Part shown: piece by piece, positions 8,147 through 49,710 of the stretch
Position numbering within the stretch: the stretch's first letter is position 1
Layout: each line of letters starts with the position of its first letter
NCBI GenBank assembly: GCA_009693705.1
Contig: SHWS01000001.1
Span: forward strand, 4,067-68,066
DNA: 64,000 nucleotides
Origin: Pelagibacteraceae bacterium
GTDB taxonomy: Bacteria; Pseudomonadota; Alphaproteobacteria; Pelagibacterales; Pelagibacteraceae
Reading direction: 5' to 3'
Notes under the pieces: generated by a model
The model's input: only the letters and a program-made list of their open reading frames with translations
Database searches by the model: none
What the model was told of the DNA's origin: nothing
Position numbers and translations under genes: made by a program

Positions 8147-9213
8147 TTTTTTGAAATCAATCTTTGTCTTAAATTATCAATGGGTAAAAAATTTCCATTT
8201 AAATTATAGTGCCAATAAGTCCATCCGTTACAACTTTCAGCTCCCAAAATTATTGCTGCTACTTTATGAATAGATCCTTTTGCTTGATCATGCTTAATGC
8301 TACCATCTGCCATAATTTTTGCACTTATTTTCTTTTTATTATCAAAAATAGAAGTTCCTGGTTTAATTATTCCAAGCTCAACCAATGATCCAAATGGTAT
8401 TCTTGGTTTAGATCTATTATTTTCTAATGTGTCCAGATAATCATCTTCGATTGGTTTAGTAAATTTCAATCTTTGATCTGCTGCCTTAACGTAACTGATC
8501 TCTTTTTCAATTCCATAATAATTTCTTCCTAATTTTTTAGCAACAGCCGCTGTTGTTCCTGAACCTAAAAAGGGATCTAAAACAAAATCGTTTTTATTAG
8601 TGCTTGCCAATAATATTCTATGTAATAAAGATTCTGGCTTTTGAGTTGAGTGTATTTTTTTACCATTTTTTTTTAGTCTTTCTTGTCCACTGCAAATAGG
8701 TAAATTCCAGTTAGATCTCATTTGTAAATCGTCATTTAAACATTTTAAAGATTGATAGTTAAAAGTATATTTTGATTTGTCGGATTTTGAAGCCCAAATT
8801 AGGGTTTCATGGGCATTAGTAAAACGCCTACCTCTAAAATTTGGCATTGGATTATTTTTATTCCAAATAACATCATTTAAAATCCAAAATCCCAAATTTT
8901 GAATAGTCGTACCTACTCGAAAAATGTTATGATAGCTTCCTATAACCCATATAGCACCATCTTTTTTTAAAATTCTCTTACATTCACTTAACCACGAATA
9001 AGTAAATTCATCATATTGTTGAAAACTTTTAAATTGATCCCATTTATCGTTTACTGCATTTACTTTTGATCTATCTGGTCTGGTTAATTCTCCTTTTAAT
9101 TGTAAATTGTATGGAGGGTCTGCAAAAACTAAATCAAATGTATCGCTCGGAATTTTTTTTAATTCTTCCAGACTGTCGCCATTAATAATCTTATTTTTTA
9201 AATCACTTGTCAT
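8143..9213 (-). CDS. ccrM: Cell-cycle-regulated GANTC adenine methyltransferase CcrM
   Basis: [23 protein letters not shown] (beta-class N6-MTase) plus the CcrM C-terminal domain (RIPFGSLVE...GSIH...CNGWTYW); next to rnhB. Confidence 0.95.
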
Positions 9214-9225
9214 TTATATAAAATA

Positions 9226-9254
9226 ATTAGACTCCAAAAGGATTCTTGGGTCAA
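9226..9254 (-). promoter_or_regulatory. Candidate ccrM promoter containing two GANTC sites
   Basis: Minus strand TTGACC (9254-9249), 17-nt spacer, TCTAAT (9231-9226); GANTC at 9230-9234 and 9241-9245. Confidence 0.5.
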
Positions 9255-9271
9255 CCCATGATTGAATTATT

Positions 9272-9886
9272 TTAATTTTTTTGTGTAAGTTTATTTTTTA
9301 GCAACCAGATGTTGTGTTTTTTAGGAGTATTAATTATAGAAATCGGAGAAAAAGTTTTTCTGTGGTGTCTTGTAATTCCAAGTTTTTTAATAGCTAGTAA
9401 ATGTTTTTTTGTACCATAACCAAAATTTTGGTTCCAAAAATAACCTTTATTTGTATTTGCCAATATGGTTATAAATTTATCTCTAGAGACTTTTGCAATA
9501 ATGGATGCTGCTGAAATAGAAGGTATTTTTTGATCACCTTTTATAACTGTTTTGAGATTATAATTTTTTAAATTTGGTAATTGATTTCCATCAATTAAAA
9601 CAATATTGGGTTTTTTTTTAAGTTTTAGAATTGCTCTTTTCATTGCAAGCAAACTGGCCTGTAAAATATTAATTTTTTCTATCTCTTTAACCGAAGCCTG
9701 ACCAGTCGCCCAAATAGAATTTTTTTTGATATATTTAAATAAGAATTCTCTCCTATTTTTGGATATTGATTTTGAATCTTTTAATAATTTTTTTTTAATA
9801 GACTTATTTAAAATAACTGCTGCAGCATAAACAGGTCCTATTAAACTCCCTCGTCCTGCTTCATCAACACCAGCAATAATCTTCAT
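9272..9886 (-). CDS. rnhB: Ribonuclease HII
   Basis: AGVDEAGRG, DSK, IDGN, KGD...SIAAASIIAK, GYGT motifs. Confidence 0.96.
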   Translation of the reverse strand: MKIIAGVDEAGRGSLIGPVYAAAVILNKSIKKKLLKDSKSISKNRREFLFKYIKKNSIWATGQASVKEIEKINILQASLLAMKRAILKLKKKPNIVLIDGNQLPNLKNYNLKTVIKGDQKIPSISAASIIAKVSRDKFITILANTNKGYFWNQNFGYGTKKHLLAIKKLGITRHHRKTFSPISIINTPKKHNIWLLKNKLTQKN

Positions 9887-26457: not shown

Positions 26458-27115
26458 AACCTGCTCCTCTGATTGTTTGAAGAAATTTTGGATTTTTTGG
26501 ATCAATTTCTATTTTTTTTCTCAATCTAGTAATAATAACATCAATTGATCTTTCTTTGTTTAAGTCTATAAAATTTCCTATATCTTCCCTAGAGAATATT
26601 TTACCAGGATTGTTAATCATTTTTTCTAGTATTATTTTTTCTGTATTATTAATTTTAAATTCAATATCTTTTTTAAAAATTAAAAGTTTATTCAAATCAA
26701 TTTTAATATTTTCAAACTCAATTATTCTTTTTTGCTCATTTTTAATTGTTTTATTTAAAATGTTATTAATTCTTAAAACAAGTTCTTTAGGTTCAAATGG
26801 TTTCGATAGGTAGTCATCTGCACCAATTTCTAATCCTTCAACTCTCTCATTTGACCGATCTTTAGCTGTTAATAAAATAATTGGAGTGTCTATTTTTTTT
26901 TTATGTTCTTTAATAAATTCTAATCCACTTTTACCAGGCATCATGACATCTAATATAATTAGGTCAAATTTAATTACTTTAATTTTTTTTGATGCATTTT
27001 CTGCATTTTCAGCTGTTGTAATTAAAAAATTATTTTCATTTAAGTATTTTTTTAATAGAGACCTAATTTCATGATCATCATCTACAATTAAAATGTGAGC
27101 TATAAATTTATCCAT
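26438..27115 (-). CDS. OmpR-family response regulator (PetR-like)
   Basis: VDDD, LDVMMPG, LLTAK, GADDY..KPF, and winged-helix IDVIITRLRKKIE...QTIRGAGY. Confidence 0.93.
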   Translation of the reverse strand: MDKFIAHILIVDDDHEIRSLLKKYLNENNFLITTAENAENASKKIKVIKFDLIILDVMMPGKSGLEFIKEHKKKIDTPIILLTAKDRSNERVEGLEIGADDYLSKPFEPKELVLRINNILNKTIKNEQKRIIEFENIKIDLNKLLIFKKDIEFKINNTEKIILEKMINNPGKIFSREDIGNFIDLNKERSIDVIITRLRKKIEIDPKNPKFLQTIRGAGYVLWIE

Positions 27116-42587: not shown

Positions 42588-43052
42588 ATGACACTAAAAG
42601 AAACCATCGCAACTGAATATAAAAACGCTCTAAAATCTCAAGATAAAACAAAAATATCAACTTACAGGTTAATACTATCTTCGATTAAAGATTTAGATAT
42701 TGTAAATAGATCTGGTCCAAATAAAAAAGATACAGACGATGAAGATATCAAAAAGCTTATAAAAAAAATGGTTAAGCAGAGAACCGAATCAATTGAAATA
42801 TATAAAAAAAATAATAGAAATGACCTATTAGAAGTTGAGCAAAATGAGTATGATATTTTAATTAGTTTTCTACCAAAACAAATCAGCGAAGAAGATGCAA
42901 AAAAAATATGCATCGAAACTATAGCCAAAATAGGGGCAAACTCAATTAAAGATATGGGCAAGGTAATGGGTGAACTAAAAAAACAATATGCAGATGAAAT
43001 AGATTTTGCAAAAGCGGGAGCTTTACTTAAAGAATTATTAAATAAGCGATGA
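42588..43052 (+). CDS. GatB/YqeY domain protein
   Basis: KMVKQR.ESIE.Y...R.DL...E..E, LPKQ, KDMGKVM. Confidence 0.9.
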   Translation: MTLKETIATEYKNALKSQDKTKISTYRLILSSIKDLDIVNRSGPNKKDTDDEDIKKLIKKMVKQRTESIEIYKKNNRNDLLEVEQNEYDILISFLPKQISEEDAKKICIETIAKIGANSIKDMGKVMGELKKQYADEIDFAKAGALLKELLNKR

Positions 43053-44824
43053 AGTACCCTAAAGAATATCTTGATGAGATTAAAACCAGACTTAAAGTTT
43101 CAACTGTAGTTTCTAAAAGTGTATCTTTGAAAAAAAAAGGTAAGGAATTTGTAGGTTTATCTCCTTTTAAAAATGAAAAAACTCCATCATTTACAGTTAA
43201 TGATGAAAAAGAATTTTATCATTGTTTTGCAACCGCAGAGCACGGTAATATTTTTGATTTTATAATGAAAATGCAAAATCTTAAATTTGGTGAAGCGGTT
43301 AAATATTTAGCAAATCTCGCTGGGATGCAGCCTTATATGTTTTCTAAACTGGATGAAGAAAGAGAACAAAAATTTAAAGAATATTTGTCAGTTTACTCTC
43401 AATATGTTGATTTTTATCATGAAGAATTATTAAAGAACGAAAATCACGCTAACGTCAGAGATTATTTAAAAAATAGATCATTAAATAAAGATCAAGTTAA
43501 AAAATTTAAAATTGGCTATGTAGAAAAAAACCCTAAGTTCTATGAAAAATTAAAACAAAATTTTAGCGAACAAACTTTAGTTGAAACTGGCTTATTTTTC
43601 CTAGATGAAAAAAATAAAATTTATATTGAAAGATTTAAAGGTAGATTAATTTTTCCAATAAATAATATTTCAGGTCAACCAATTGCTTTAGGAGGAAGAA
43701 TAATTGAAAACACAGATTACTTAGCTAAATATATTAATTCTCCAGAAACTACTTTTTTTAAAAAAGGATCAAACTTGTATAATTTAGATTTTGCGAGAAA
43801 ATTATCTAATAAACTGGATCATATTTATCTTGTTGAAGGTTATATGGACGTTATTGGTTTGAGTAAAAATGGAATTGAAAATGTCGTTGCTAATCTTGGA
43901 ACTTCTTTAACTGATCAACAAATTTTAATATTAAATCAATTTTTTGAAGATATTATAATTTGTTTTGATGGAGATGAAAGCGGATACAAGGCAGCGGTAA
44001 GAGCAGCAGAAAATTCAATCAAAGAACTTAAGCCAGAAAAGCAAATTTCATTTTTATTTTTACCAGACAAAGAAGATCCTGATAGTTTTGTGAACAAAAA
44101 TGGCAAAAATTATTTTATTGATTTTATGAAAAATAATAAAATATCTATACATCAATTTATTTTTAGTCATTATAAAGAACAAACTGAAAACAATCCATCG
44201 TCTATGGCAATTTTTGAAAAAAAACTTAGATCTGTTACAAATACTATTAAGGATGATTTTATTAAAAAATATGTTCTAGAATACTTTCTCGAAAAAATAT
44301 CTGAATTAACGCCTCACTCCAATCAAAATAAAAAAAATTTTTATTTTAAGAAAACAAAATCACTAGAAGCTACTAAAAAATACTACAATGAAAGCCAATC
44401 TATAACAGGTGTTGAGTTAAAAGAGTTTTCACTATTATATTTAATTATTAATAATTTAAGTCTACTTCAAGCTAATATACATTTAATAGAAAATATTAAA
44501 TTATTCACTAAAGTGAATAAACAAATTTTTGAGATGATTGTCACTAAACTTAAAAATGGCGAACCAATTAATGCCGAAACTTTAAATTTGGACAGACAAT
44601 TGTTAGAAAAAATTAGTAAATTTGCCCCAATAAAACATATTTTAAAAAACAAACCAAATGATGATCATATAATTATAGAATTATTGGAGGATATCTCTAG
44701 AGATTTAATTAATTTCGATCTTGAGTTTAGAATCCAGGAATTAGAATCGAAGTTTTCAAAAGATTTGAGTGAGGTGACATTTAATCAACTTAAAGAGCTC
44801 AAAAAAAAGCAAAATATCAATTAA
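43049..44824 (+). CDS. dnaG: DNA primase
   Basis: EKTPSF, KYINSPET, TOPRIM VEGYMDV and FDGD.SG; Zn-binding ligands degenerate. Confidence 0.97.
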   Translation: MKYPKEYLDEIKTRLKVSTVVSKSVSLKKKGKEFVGLSPFKNEKTPSFTVNDEKEFYHCFATAEHGNIFDFIMKMQNLKFGEAVKYLANLAGMQPYMFSKLDEEREQKFKEYLSVYSQYVDFYHEELLKNENHANVRDYLKNRSLNKDQVKKFKIGYVEKNPKFYEKLKQNFSEQTLVETGLFFLDEKNKIYIERFKGRLIFPINNISGQPIALGGRIIENTDYLAKYINSPETTFFKKGSNLYNLDFARKLSNKLDHIYLVEGYMDVIGLSKNGIENVVANLGTSLTDQQILILNQFFEDIIICFDGDESGYKAAVRAAENSIKELKPEKQISFLFLPDKEDPDSFVNKNGKNYFIDFMKNNKISIHQFIFSHYKEQTENNPSSMAIFEKKLRSVTNTIKDDFIKKYVLEYFLEKISELTPHSNQNKKNFYFKKTKSLEATKKYYNESQSITGVELKEFSLLYLIINNLSLLQANIHLIENIKLFTKVNKQIFEMIVTKLKNGEPINAETLNLDRQLLEKISKFAPIKHILKNKPNDDHIIIELLEDISRDLINFDLEFRIQELESKFSKDLSEVTFNQLKELKKKQNIN

Positions 44825-46712: not shown

Positions 46713-46719
46713 TTCATCT

Positions 46720-46794
46720 GGGCCGTTAGCTCAATAGTAGAGTACTGCATTGACATTGCAGGGGTAGTTGGAGCATAACCAACACGGCCCACCA
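46720..46794 (+). tRNA. tRNA-Val(GAC) with non-canonical D and T loops
   Basis: Acceptor GGGCCGT/ACGGCCC, D stem GCTC/GAGT, anticodon stem CTGCA/TGCAG with GAC at 46752-46754, T stem GTTGG/CCAAC with loop AGCATAA, A73 and CCA. Confidence 0.85.
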
Positions 46795-46853: not shown

Positions 46854-46930
46854 GGGCCTGTAGCTCAGTTGGTTAGAGCAGTACACTCATAATGTATTGG
46901 TCCCTGGTTCGAGTCCAGGCGGGCCCACCA
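46854..46930 (+). tRNA. tRNA-Ile2(CAU, lysidine-type)
   Basis: Cloverleaf GGGCCTG/CGGGCCC, anticodon CAT at 46888-46890, canonical GG and GGTTCGAGT. It lacks initiator features (C1:A72 mismatch, three G-C pairs) and the acceptor resembles Ile2; elongator Met is not formally excluded. Confidence 0.85.
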
Positions 46931-46945
46931 AATCTTTTATAATTT

Positions 46946-47539
46946 TTAATTTTTTGAATACTCTTCTAGAATTTTAAATAGTGCATTAATATCACCATTG
47001 TTAGAATTTAAGACAGACTCAAATTCCTCTTTTTGTGTTCTTGCTAAACTTAATCCTTCAATAATTAGATCTCTTATTAGTGGGTTGTCCGGATTTTTAG
47101 TATAAACTCTCCAGTCAATTTTAATTTCAGGCCTATTGCTAGTGCCTTTGAGTAAACTATTAACGATGGTATAGCTTTCATTGACAACTTCTTTTGATGA
47201 AATAATAATTTCAGGATTCTCATAATCTGCCAATCTACTAGAAAAGCTTTTCAAGAAATAAGCTTCAAATAATCTAGTATATTCATTCTGTTGATTTTGA
47301 TCTAAAGTTTTTACAAAAGATCCAAGCGTGTAAAAACTAATGCCCTTTATATCTACAACATCTTTAGCAATAACTTCGAGTTCACTGATTTTTTGTTCTT
47401 TTGAAATATTGTCTGATAATATTTTTGAAGTTCTATTAATTAATGATTGAACAAATACATCTGCCTCCTCTGAATAAGATGTGTGGGCGAAACTTATCAA
47501 ATACACAAGCACTATAAAAATTGTTTTTTTTATTTTCAT
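46946..47539 (-). CDS. mlaC: Phospholipid-binding protein MlaC/Ttg2D family
   Basis: Signal peptide, WRV, DLIIEGLSL...QKEEF.S; adjacent to VacJ. Confidence 0.85.
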   Translation of the reverse strand: MKIKKTIFIVLVYLISFAHTSYSEEADVFVQSLINRTSKILSDNISKEQKISELEVIAKDVVDIKGISFYTLGSFVKTLDQNQQNEYTRLFEAYFLKSFSSRLADYENPEIIISSKEVVNESYTIVNSLLKGTSNRPEIKIDWRVYTKNPDNPLIRDLIIEGLSLARTQKEEFESVLNSNNGDINALFKILEEYSKN

Positions 47540-47558
47540 AAATTAGTAATTCAGAATA

Positions 47559-48341
47559 CTAGTTTTCGATTTCTTCCCAATTACTATTGTCTTGGGTATC
47601 CACAATTTTGTTTGTATTTAAAATTTTTTGTTGTCGATCCTGAAGATATAAACTTTTAACTGAAGCATAAAAATCAATTGAATTTTTCTCTAAACTATTG
47701 ATGCTATCATAGTTTTTTGCTCTAAAATCAATTCCAGATATTACTTGTGAGGCATGGTAATCAAAATCACTAAAGTAGTGGGTATCATTTTTCACAGTCA
47801 CATTATACCAGCTGTCTCCGCCCGCTATATTTATTAATAAGGCAGCGCTATCTCTAACTGTGCTAGGACCTAAAACAGGTAACACAAGATAGCATCCAGG
47901 TCCTACGCCTAGAGTTGCTAAAGATTGACCATAGTCCTCTTTTTCATAATCGGGCAAACCAACATAATGCGCTACATCAACTAAACCTAAAATACCAATA
48001 GTAGTATTTATTATAAATCTTCCCGAATTTTTTCCTGCTTTATTTAAATCACCCTGAATTATATTGTTTGGAATTGTAACTAAGTTAGAAAGATTATCTA
48101 AAGCATTGCTTACACCGCTTCTTACCGGTGAAGGTACAACTTTATAAACTCTAGCTGCAGGCTTAAATATCAATCCATCTAACACTTTATTAAAACCAAA
48201 AGTAGCTCGATTTAGAGTTTCAAAACAATCTTTTATTTCAGAGGGTTGATTTTTACTTAAAAGTAATTCTTCTTTAGAAGATGCATTAATATTTGAGGTC
48301 AAAAAAAAACTCAAAAGAAGTGTAAATATAATTTTTTTCAT
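47559..48341 (-). CDS. mlaA: VacJ/MlaA-family outer-membrane lipid asymmetry protein
   Basis: E..NR..F.FN, RFIINTTIGILGL.D, EDYGQSL, YLVLPVLGPSTVRD. Confidence 0.9.
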   Translation of the reverse strand: MKKIIFTLLLSFFLTSNINASSKEELLLSKNQPSEIKDCFETLNRATFGFNKVLDGLIFKPAARVYKVVPSPVRSGVSNALDNLSNLVTIPNNIIQGDLNKAGKNSGRFIINTTIGILGLVDVAHYVGLPDYEKEDYGQSLATLGVGPGCYLVLPVLGPSTVRDSAALLINIAGGDSWYNVTVKNDTHYFSDFDYHASQVISGIDFRAKNYDSINSLEKNSIDFYASVKSLYLQDRQQKILNTNKIVDTQDNSNWEEIEN

Positions 48342-48411: not shown

Positions 48412-49155
48412 ATGTCTAATAAAATGTTAAAAAAATATTCACCAAATTTTAGTTTGCCCAAAAGATTAAGCGGCACAATAAGGTTTATTATCTTTCATTA
48501 CACTGGAATGAAAAAAGAATCAGAAGCTATTAAAAGGCTAACAAGCGCCAAATCTGAAGTTAGTAGTCATTATTTTATTAAATTAAATGGTCAAATTATA
48601 AATTTAGTACCTGATTTATATACCGCCTGGCACGCGGGAAGATCAAAATGGCAAAAATTTAATTCTTTAAATAAAAACTCAATAGGAATTGAAATTAGCA
48701 ATCCAGGGCATGATCATGAGTATCATAACTTTAAAAAGACGCAAATAAATTCATTAATTAAACTTACTAAATATTTAATAAAAAAATATAAAATTAAAAA
48801 ATATAATATTTTAGGACATTCAGATGTTGCGCCAGATAGAAAAAAAGATCCTGGTGAAAAATTTCCCTGGAGATATTTATCAAAGAAAAAAATTGGATTT
48901 TGGCACAATATCAGTAATAAAGTTTTAAAAAAAAACAGAAATAATAAAATTGATATTAAAAATCAAAATCTTTTTTTTAAAAATTTAAATAAAATTGGAT
49001 ATATAGAACAACTAAATACTAATTTTAGTAAAAAAAAAAATAAAATATTTATTATTGAAGCATTTCAAAGAAGATTTCGTCAAGAATTGATAAATGGTAA
49101 AATAGATAAAGAATGTTTGTTAATTAGTAAAAACCTAGCTAAATTGATCAAATAA
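48412..49155 (+). CDS. N-acetylmuramoyl-L-alanine amidase (amidase_2, AmpD/AmiD-like) with C-terminal PG-binding segment; no signal peptide
   Basis: HYT, SSHY, AWHAG, SIGIE, GHSD.AP.RK.DPG; AFQRRFR tail. Confidence 0.9.
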   Translation: MSNKMLKKYSPNFSLPKRLSGTIRFIIFHYTGMKKESEAIKRLTSAKSEVSSHYFIKLNGQIINLVPDLYTAWHAGRSKWQKFNSLNKNSIGIEISNPGHDHEYHNFKKTQINSLIKLTKYLIKKYKIKKYNILGHSDVAPDRKKDPGEKFPWRYLSKKKIGFWHNISNKVLKKNRNNKIDIKNQNLFFKNLNKIGYIEQLNTNFSKKKNKIFIIEAFQRRFRQELINGKIDKECLLISKNLAKLIK

Positions 49156-49195: not shown

Positions 49196-49550
49196 GCCAG
49201 ATAAATGACTTATCGCTTTAATCTATTTTAAAGAGGAAAGTCCGGGCTCCACAAGAATACAGTGCCAGGTAATACCTGGCGGGGGCAACCCCAGGGATAG
49301 TGCCACAGAAAATAAACCGCCATAACATGGCAAGGGTGAAAAGGTGTGGTAAGAGCACACCGGTTCTATTGGTAACAATGAACGCTGGAAAACCCCACTG
49401 GGAGCAAGACTAAGTAGAGATGACATTGTTGAAAAACTAAAAGCCATTCTTGGTTCGTCATCAGGGTTAGTTGCTTGAGCTTAAGAGCGATCTTAAGTCT
49501 AGATAAATGATAGGTTTGAAGGACAAAACCCGGCTTATAGTTTATCTGGC
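49196..49550 (+). ncRNA. rnpB: RNase P RNA (type A)
   Basis: Terminal P1 helix GCCAGATAAA/TTTATCTGGC; GAGGAAAGTCCGGGC, AGTGCCACAGAAA, GGTAAGAGC, ACAAAACCCGGCTTA conserved regions. Confidence 0.97.
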
Positions 49551-49710
49551 TATAAACTTAGAGATTAAATTTAGATAAAAATACATTCTATATTTTAAGT
49601 TTAATTAATTCATCCATGAGATTAATTTTTCAAAAGATAATTAAAGTAAATCCACACTTTTAATTAACCTGATAATATTTTTAATTATTAGTATTTGATA
49701 AATTCTTTAA

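Follow-up and report, generated by a model that had tools for sequence, protein, structure and literature searches.

The window analysed here is a stretch of 64,000 nucleotides (nt) of a Pelagibacteraceae assembly (GCA_009693705.1, contig SHWS01000001.1, positions 4,067 to 68,066, forward strand). Its subject is a tRNA-Val(GAC) gene whose D and T loops lack most of the bases that build the canonical tRNA elbow. The gene most probably specifies an ordinary translating tRNA of Pelagibacter with an alternative elbow, a reading to which we assign a probability of about 80% from the sequence evidence. The exchanged bases change together, the rewired gene has orthologues in at least 160 SAR11 species, and elbows of the same kind occur in tRNA-His and tRNA-Phe genes that are the only ones of their genomes. 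Two grades of rewiring are distinguished below: grade 1 is the swap to A18/G55 only, and grade 2 adds A54, U58, A60, A15 and a 16:59 pair, as in tRNA-Val(GAC). The first-pass annotation of this DNA had offered two alternatives, a functional tRNA with an elbow that needs neither T54 nor pseudouridine (Psi) 55, or a tRNA diverted from translation. The first is the best reading, given the like elbows of the sole tRNA-His and tRNA-Phe genes; no TruB was found in the genus, and no TrmA or TrmFO in the genomes searched for them.

The tRNA-Val(GAC) gene

ARAGORN calls three tRNAs in the window, one of which is tRNA-Val(GAC) at nt 46720–46794. It scores 53.5 bits with the Rfam tRNA model (RF00005), above the gathering score of 29 and below the other two tRNAs (71.7 and 59.4 bits), and its minimum-free-energy fold is a cloverleaf (−28.6 kcal/mol, z = −3.4). 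The acceptor strands (5′ GGGCCGU, 3′ ACGGCCC) are followed by A73 and CCA. The D stem (GCUC/GAGU, with G10-U25 as a wobble pair) is preceded by U8 and A9 and followed by A26, the anticodon stem is CUGCA/UGCAG, and the T stem is GUUGG/CCAAC. The valine identity set (A35, C36 and A73) and the 3′ CCA are present and are kept in all orthologues. It is the single GAC gene of its genome, as is the case in the closed Pelagibacter genome G023, and a canonical tRNA-Val(UAC) is found elsewhere in the genome (C43:64574).

In the D loop, A18 stands in place of G18, G19 is retained and U16 is the partner of A59. In the T loop, positions 54 and 58 are swapped, G55 replaces U55, C56 is retained and position 57 is a purine. 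The canonical elbow consists of G18-U55, G19-C56, U54-A58 and a pyrimidine at position 60; only G19-C56 and purine 57 remain. The base-by-base description of the first-pass annotation (D loop, T loop, A48, four paired stems, valine identity elements and CCA) was correct at every base on re-reading. The window's other two tRNAs are indeed canonical, with D and T loops AGCGGUA/UUCGAUU in the Gln tRNA and AGUUGGUUA/UUCGAGU in a tRNA with anticodon CAU.

Coupling of the loop positions

Val(GAC) genes from relatives (216 in all) were reduced to 47 distinct sequences, on which the following counts were made, uncorrected for phylogeny. The four stems (7/4/5/5) are paired in 100% of cells and 18 stem pairs are changed on both sides, a degree of covariation reached by 0 of 500 shuffles and by no slid register; stems also covary inside the rewired class. 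Positions 18/55 are G/U in 29 sequences and A/G in 18, with no mixed state, and positions 54/58 are U/A in 30 and A/U in 17, never mixed or unpaired. G19-C56 is invariant. Positions 16/59 of the rewired class are U:A in 12 distinct sequences and A:U in five, while the canonical class has mostly U/U. An A15-A48 Levitt pair, which had been described for the window's gene, is present there and in 17 of 17 grade-2 Val sequences, but is no constant of the design, as grade-2 tRNA-His has A15/C48.

The coupling extends beyond valine. Among 156 distinct CCA-ending tRNAs that were gathered, U55 goes with GG at positions 18 and 19 in 125 of 125 cases, and G55 with AG in the same register in 31 of 31; all 31 of the latter also carry a purine (A or G) at position 57. 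These counts too are made on distinct sequences, uncorrected for phylogeny; what makes the cases independent is the variety of tRNA families and backbones. Paired changes had been taken earlier as a sign of selection rather than decay, and the orthologues bear this out: 18/55 and 54/58 are both coupled without mixed states, and the stems of the rewired class covary.

Distribution in SAR11

BLAST searches and a covariance model trained on Val(GAC) genes were used to survey 101 order-level and 151 family-level genomes for this tRNA. Scores of at least 96 bits mark the rewired class and scores of 74–85 bits the canonical class, as confirmed on retrieved sequences. The rewired gene occurs in 43 of 43 sampled genomes of the window's genus; beyond it, genera g6 and g13 have it, as do most of g17 and individual members of g12, g5 and g4. 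Canonical Val(GAC) is found in the sister family f2 (about 50 genomes, AGUGGUA/UUCGAUC), in g2, g9, g10 and g14, and in most of g4, g5 and g12. When one genome of each prokaryote species was scanned with a sequence pattern, the matches listed included more than 120 further carriers, and the named carriers among these are all Pelagibacteraceae, Candidatus Pelagibacter or SAR11 single-cell genomes. A single rewired sequence is common to about 140 species and differs from the window's gene in having G57. A57 is a minority state, seen in the window's genome, G113 and G196 (three distinct sequences); most relatives have G57, so the purine is kept. The GAC anticodon is invariant in all 47 distinct sequences, with a loop variant, UCGACAC, in genus g14. 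One genome (G172) has two rewired Val(GAC) copies, 2.6 kb apart. Sequencing error or recent decay, which canonical loops in close relatives would have indicated, is ruled out by the uniformly rewired genus sample and by the more than 120 further named SAR11 species.

About a third of the family genomes, some of them complete and several near-complete, have no Val(GAC). The complete genomes G036 and G045, as well as G017, G007, G057, G052 and G060, have Val(UAC) only; since they lack Val(GAC), their Val(UAC) reads all four valine codons, in line with the earlier suggestion that this tRNA can suffice alone.

These absences could mark a still functional but degenerating gene, redundant with Val(UAC), whose loops drifted under AT pressure after the elbow-modifying enzymes were lost and which is on its way out; its product would be a weakened tRNA and no co-adapted design. 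The absence of truB from the genus and of trmA and trmFO from the genomes searched for them, the low G+C content (28.7%) and the ARAGORN and Rfam scores, lower than those of the neighbouring tRNAs, are all compatible with this. The base changes themselves point in two directions, as G18 to A follows the AT bias, whereas U55 to G runs counter to it. Drift is further opposed by the complete lack of half-changed states (0 among the 47 Val and the 156 total distinct tRNAs), by the identical sequence in about 140 species with stems that covary in the class, by the same loops being fixed in an essential, sole-copy tRNA-His, and by their independent recurrence in phage tRNAs, the last two of which are described below. 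Degeneration is therefore considered quite improbable.

Rewired elbows in sole tRNA genes

The window's genome (49 contigs, 1.29 Mb) has 31 ARAGORN tRNAs, four of which have non-UUC T loops. Their loop sequences (D/T) read AAUAGUA/AGCAUAA in Val(GAC), AGGAGUA/UGCGAAU in Phe(GAA), AAUAGUAA/UGCGAUU in His(GUG) and AAUGGUA/GUCAGUA in Thr(GGU). The first-pass annotation was right that tRNA-Val(GAC) is odd, but saw it as a single case; it is one of four in the genome and belongs to a recurrent two-step design that is shared with phage tRNAs. The sole tRNA-Phe and the sole tRNA-His of the genome are both grade 1 (A18/G55), and a gene for a cold-shock protein lies between them (contig C46:26112-26186 and 26708-26782). 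The tRNA-Thr(GGU) (C46:21921-21994, minus strand) has the normal G18 and G19 and a T loop with G54 and G58, a third kind of T loop; its orthologue in G023 is canonical (UUCGAUU).

The closed genome G023 (1,200,090 bp) contains one tRNA-Phe, of grade 1, and one tRNA-His, of grade 2. This sole tRNA-His (C1:205065-205138, L030, L293) was missed by ARAGORN at default settings and found at a lowered threshold (-ps90), so that Pelagibacter genomes with a grade-2 tRNA-His may be annotated as having none. Because no cell translates without tRNA-His, the grade-2 elbow must be acceptable to the synthetase and EF-Tu, and likewise to RNase P and the ribosome. Grade-2 tRNA-His is also present in G058, G008, G032 and 10 of 81 further genomes of the genus. 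Its D loop is AAUAGUA (one variant, AAUAGCA) and its T loop AGCGUAA, with C48 unlike the A48 of Val, and the acceptor stems of these genes covary (GCCUUGA, GCCUUGG, GCUUUGG and GCAUUAG).

Intermediates between the canonical and the grade-2 state are found in several families. A grade-1 Val(GAC) occurs in G191 (AGUAGUA/UGCAAUC, C48). Phe is grade 1 in most genomes of the genus as well as in G006, G057 and G119, with two backbones among them. His is grade 1 in the window's genome and also in G060, there with a different backbone and a D loop of 9 nt; grade-1 Thr(GGU) was found in G015. The His genes form a series in which parts are shared between successive members. The canonical His of G041 and the grade-1 His of the window's genome have one T stem (UUUGG/CCAAG), while the grade-1 gene, whose D arm is GUGA-AAUAGUAA-UCAC, and the grade-2 genes have in common the D stem GUGA/UCAC, U8-G9 and the variable region AGUC. 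Such stepwise sharing of parts argues for local stepwise evolution.

The sole tRNA-His also bears on the alternative that tRNA-Val(GAC) is diverted from the ribosome and acts as a regulatory RNA or as an aminoacyl donor in making the cell envelope or peptides. Staphylococci use non-proteinogenic tRNA-Gly species, which lack the GG and TPsiC signatures, to build peptidoglycan bridges. The tRNA-Val(GAC) resembles these in its loops, and Val(UAC) is sufficient alone in some relatives, which would leave a GAC tRNA free for other uses. However, there is one GAC copy and no canonical twin. The canonical Val(GAC) of sister family f2 has the identical T stem, so that no change has occurred in the pairs that are known to modulate EF-Tu affinity and no sign of weaker EF-Tu binding is apparent. 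Conservation extends to the anticodon loop, A73 and CCA. The codons that a GAC anticodon would serve are the majority of valine codons (GUU 54% and GUC 7%, together 61%, in 878 long open reading frames), and a tRNA-His that is bound to translate has the same elbow. A partner transferase of the Fem type was not identified, no search for one having been made. Diversion from translation, the second alternative of the first-pass annotation, is accordingly given very little credence, less than any other explanation weighed here.

Phage tRNAs with the same module

The grade-2 module, a T loop AGCRUWA (R, purine; W, A or U) with a D loop AAUAGUA, was also sought in viral contigs using a short D-loop/T-arm pattern. 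Most of the 120 matches listed are due to chance, and only tRNAs folded by ARAGORN were counted. In the viral match loci, ARAGORN found at least 21 tRNAs with an AGCRU T loop, 20 of 21 with an AG D loop, among 236 canonical siblings with UUCRA and GG. Their specificities are Phe, Val(UAC), Val(GAC), Glu, Thr, Ile, Gly, His, Asp, Gln and Met, and a more permissive setting adds Lys(UUU) and Asn(GUU). The tRNA-rich phage contigs (L357, L365, L389, L428, L441, L443, L449, L457, L468 and others) have one or two tRNAs each with AGCRUWA and A18 G19, Phe being the commonest. In two phage tRNAs that were not forced by the pattern (Ile, AAAAGUUA/AGCAUUA; Asp, AGAAGCA/AGCGUUA), an A precedes A18 and position 59 is U; the remaining ones have U before A18 and A59. 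The occurrence of both combinations indicates that the 16:59 coupling holds in phage tRNAs too.

A phage connection raises the possibility that the elbow was selected to evade something that reads the U54-U55/G18 corner, such as a phage or toxin nuclease or a modifying enzyme, and would thereby tag a protected subset of tRNAs, or that the gene itself came from a phage. The module is common in tRNA-rich phage contigs, and its spread in SAR11 is patchy: at the same site, next to the initiator tRNA, two genomes of genus g12 carry different alleles, rewired in G026 (C1:434359-434433, L010) and canonical in G035 (C7:8593-8667, L086), with about 25 differences. This indicates allele replacement, with recombination between SAR11 lineages as the presumed route. 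The rewired tRNAs seen in SAR11 (Val-GAC, Phe-GAA, His-GUG and Thr-GGU) also all have G34. However, G34 is carried by 13 of the 31 tRNAs of the window's genome, so four of four is only weakly significant, and G34 as a rule for rewired elbows, which holds in SAR11, fails in phage, where the module tRNAs include Lys-UUU, Val-UAC, Thr-UGU and Met-CAU. Import from phage was rejected: the stems of the phage Val(GAC) that carries the module are unrelated, while the in-lineage SAR11 intermediates share stems with their canonical and rewired kin, as expected of local stepwise evolution. No nuclease or defence partner was identified. Taken together, escape or import is thought very improbable as the explanation of the window's gene.

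A broader form of this idea is unlikely, if less so: that an AGCRU(W)A T loop with an (A/N)(U/A)AG D loop, with its swapped 54:58 pair and new Watson-Crick 16:59 pair, is a second elbow architecture that evolved repeatedly in SAR11 tRNA-Val and tRNA-His and in many phage tRNAs, was positively selected because the readers of U54-U55/G18 overlook such a tRNA or treat it differently, and marks a functionally distinct subset of tRNAs rather than a neutral equivalent. The readers meant would be enzymes of the TruB and TrmA type and chaperones, nucleases that attack tRNAs in conflicts between phage and host, and release at the E site or L1 stalk.

Loss of elbow-modifying enzymes

Pfam TruB_N has no match in the window's genome or in any genome of the genus. 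Across the family, it matches 49 of 151 genomes, belonging to five of 19 genera (g10, g12, g14, g15 and g17), and truB is absent in 102 of 151; all 14 controls were positive. The gene order infB-rbfA-truB-rpsO-pnp of G027 corresponds to infB-rbfA-rpsO-pnp in the window's genome (C37:24414-29359), i.e. a clean deletion of truB, and a tblastn search of the window's genome with the G027 TruB gave a best E value of 4.6. No match to the TrmA family above the cut-off was found in 15 family genomes (G061 was not among them). Searches for TrmFO in the window's genome (G000), G023, G041, G012, G014, G027, G037, G026 and G061 returned only the paralogue MnmG, whose scores of about 50 bits fall far below the cut-off of 429. 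From these losses we infer that U54 and U55 are unmodified in the window's genus, and 5-methyluridine (m5U) at position 54 is probably not made in the lineage. With m5U54 probably missing (no TrmA or TrmFO) and, in this genus, Psi55 as well (truB deleted), the lineage fits an elbow that does without them.

Several points weigh against the view that tRNA-Val(GAC) is an ordinary translating tRNA whose alternative elbow suits a lineage without these modifications. Rewired tRNAs occur in the TruB-positive genera g12, g15 and g17, and canonical Val(GAC) in TruB-negative genera, so that truB loss as a strict cause of the rewiring is ruled out; the loss of the enzymes, though no precondition, may relax the constraint. 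Exchanging a U54-A58 pair in trans Watson-Crick/Hoogsteen geometry for A54-U58 is non-isosteric, and U58 might pair with A15 in place of A54. The gene is dispensable in the family, and a second role is conceivable for Val specifically. Finally, the covariation counts, made on distinct sequences, carry no phylogenetic correction.

Genomic context and transcription

The features of the gene and its surroundings are listed in Table 1. The C-terminus of rpoD (...KQLKSFLES) ends 0–16 nt upstream of tRNA-Val(GAC) in 110 or more related loci, and the interval between the two in the window contains nothing that resembles a promoter or terminator. The rpoD transcript is thus the probable source of the tRNA, and the cotranscription proposed earlier from the 7-nt gap is plausible. 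In g17 and in G026 (g12), Val(GAC) adjoins the initiator tRNA and not rpoD.

The CAU tRNA follows tRNA-Val(GAC) in most loci of the genus. Although ARAGORN labels it Met, it is identical to tRNA-Ile(GAU) at 55 of 77 bases versus 50 of 77 for the elongator Met of contig C44, the likeness to tRNA-Ile(GAU) being seen in the acceptor stem and D arm, and it is probably the lysidine-dependent tRNA-Ile2. The window's assembly has two CAU tRNAs, neither of them an initiator, and the closed genome G023 has three. Further downstream lie mlaC and mlaA, genes of outer-membrane lipid asymmetry, as well as a gene for an N-acetylmuramoyl-L-alanine amidase (nt 46946-48341, minus strand, and 48412-49155, plus strand), with no evident link to the tRNA. 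The window also contains a bablM small RNA (nt 9210-9278, minus strand; Rfam RF01784, 75.4 bits).

Table 1. tRNA-Val(GAC) and neighbouring features in the window.
Feature	Position (nt)	Strand	Basis
dnaG, upstream of rpoD	43049-44824		
rpoD, sigma-70 factor, 606 aa	44892-46712	+	Pfam Sigma70 regions 1.1, 1.2, non-essential, 2, 3, 4
Spacer TTCATCT, 7 nt, rpoD stop to tRNA position 1 (RNase P 5′ leader)	46713-46719	+	Sequence
tRNA-Val(GAC), 75 nt, CCA encoded, grade-2 elbow	46720-46794	+	ARAGORN, Rfam RF00005, fold, orthologues
D loop AAUAGUA (A14 A15 U16 A18 G19 U20 A21)	46733-46739	+	Sequence
Anticodon GAC within loop UUGACAU (U33, A37)	46752-46754	+	Sequence, ARAGORN
Variable region GGGUA (A48 = 46766)	46762-46766	+	Sequence
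T loop AGCAUAA (A54 G55 C56 A57 U58 A59 A60)	46772-46778	+	Sequence
Canonical tRNA, anticodon CAU, 59 nt downstream of tRNA-Val(GAC)	46854-46930	+	ARAGORN (Met), Rfam
RNase P RNA, class A	49197-49553	+	Rfam RF00010, 287.5 bits

Proposed design and its significance

In the scheme proposed here, tRNA-Val(GAC) would be transcribed with dnaG and rpoD, freed by RNase P and used to decode GUU and GUC. The elbow would have been rebuilt in two steps. In the first, which gives grade 1, the intercalating G18 and its partner U55 would be swapped jointly for A18 and G55, yielding the generic UGNRA T-loop arrangement, in which an adenine lies between loop positions 4 and 5 and is hydrogen-bonded to the G at position 2. 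In the second, which gives grade 2, the closing pair U54-A58 would change to A54-U58, positions 60 and 15 would become A, and position 16, just before A18, would make a Watson-Crick-type pair with position 59. The outer G19-C56 pair and purine 57, the bases read by RNase P, the ribosome and other partners, are conserved; for RNase P, reading of the G19-C56 face has been described (PMC4810234). The design appears to be a stable alternative and no defect, reached or kept in several SAR11 tRNA families and in phage tRNAs.

What is new is a tRNA with a second elbow design, an alternative to a core that has been called universal. The G18-Psi55 and T54-A58 pairs, universal by the textbook and the sites on which the two most conserved tRNA-modifying enzymes act, are replaced in essential tRNAs of the ocean's most abundant bacterial lineage as well as in phage tRNAs. 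The elbow readers, among them RNase P, the ribosome, EF-Tu, the CCA-adding enzyme and the synthetases, must then manage with the G19-C56 face alone. The canonical, grade-1 and grade-2 tRNAs form a series of natural double-mutant cycles for T-loop docking, which ties the tRNA elbow to the riboswitch T-loop, and the loss of truB together with the lack of TrmA and TrmFO would make SAR11 a natural system without m5U54 or Psi55.

Comparison with known systems

Reviews describe G18-Psi55 and U54-A58 as conserved, the exceptions given being the A54 of initiator tRNAs, the pyrrolysine and selenocysteine tRNAs (tRNA-Pyl and tRNA-Sec) and mitochondrial tRNAs (PMC7912444, PMC4810234, PMC7609411). A search of full-text literature found no account of such SAR11 elbows or of a tRNA A18/G55 pair, most subscription journals being outside its coverage, and older papers on phage tRNAs may exist. 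Compared with the canonical class I elongator tRNA (RF00005), tRNA-Val(GAC) has the same 7/4/5/5 cloverleaf, the 7-nt anticodon loop with U33 and A37, the 5-nt variable region, U8-A14, G19-C56, purine 57, A73, CCA and the valine-specific A35 and C36. It differs at G18, U54, U55, A58 and pyrimidine 60, in having A/A at 15/48, and in the extra covarying 16:59 pair.

Among tRNAs with unusual elbows, the staphylococcal tRNA-Gly species are extra copies beside proteinogenic isoacceptors and have T-stem changes that weaken EF-Tu binding, whereas tRNA-Val(GAC) is a sole copy with the T stem of its canonical orthologue and an elbow that recurs in the sole tRNA-His. Mitochondrial type II tRNAs likewise lack TPsiC-type signatures, yet translate, in an AT-rich reduced genome; they have lost G18, G19 and the whole D/T-loop interaction, while here G19-C56 is invariant and the replacements are strictly coupled. 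The eukaryotic initiator tRNA-Met has A54, A60 and an A54-A58 pair (PMC7912444), and thus shares with tRNA-Val(GAC) A54, A60 and a closing pair without U54. It keeps Psi55, G18 and A58, also as 1-methyladenosine ((m1)A58), while tRNA-Val(GAC), a bacterial elongator, has G55, A18 and U58. A contact between D-loop position 16 and T-loop position 59 is known from tRNA-Sec, as C16:C59 in Escherichia coli and U16:U59 in eukaryotes (PMC7609411); that of Val covaries as a Watson-Crick U:A or A:U pair, with 18/55 and 54/58 replaced.

The closest parallel to the first step lies outside tRNA. The T-loops of flavin mononucleotide (FMN) and cobalamin riboswitches have the consensus YGNRA (Y, pyrimidine; N, any base), mostly UGNRA; a receptor adenosine inserts itself between positions 4 and 5, where two hydrogen bonds tie it to the G of position 2, and tRNA is set apart, according to the authors, by a U at this position (bioRxiv 10.1101/2022.12.26.521914). 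The tRNA-Val(GAC) resembles these T-loops in the G at position 2 (55), the purine at position 4 (57) and the adenine from the partner loop (A18), and in all 31 distinct G55 tRNAs A18 is in the correct register for what would be the same intercalation. It differs in that positions 1 and 5 are A and U rather than U and A (AGCAU), so that it departs from YGNRA at both ends, and in that position 3 keeps the tRNA-type Watson-Crick pair to G19 in the context of a tRNA elbow. The grade-1 tRNAs for Phe, His and Thr, like the Val of G191 (UGCRA), do have the pyrimidine at position 1 and the A at position 5, and the grade-1 Phe and His of the window's genome (UGCGA) fit UGNRA exactly. The riboswitch consensus includes nothing that matches the grade-2 AGCRU, the loop that tRNA-Val(GAC) shares with the grade-2 tRNA-His and the phage tRNAs.

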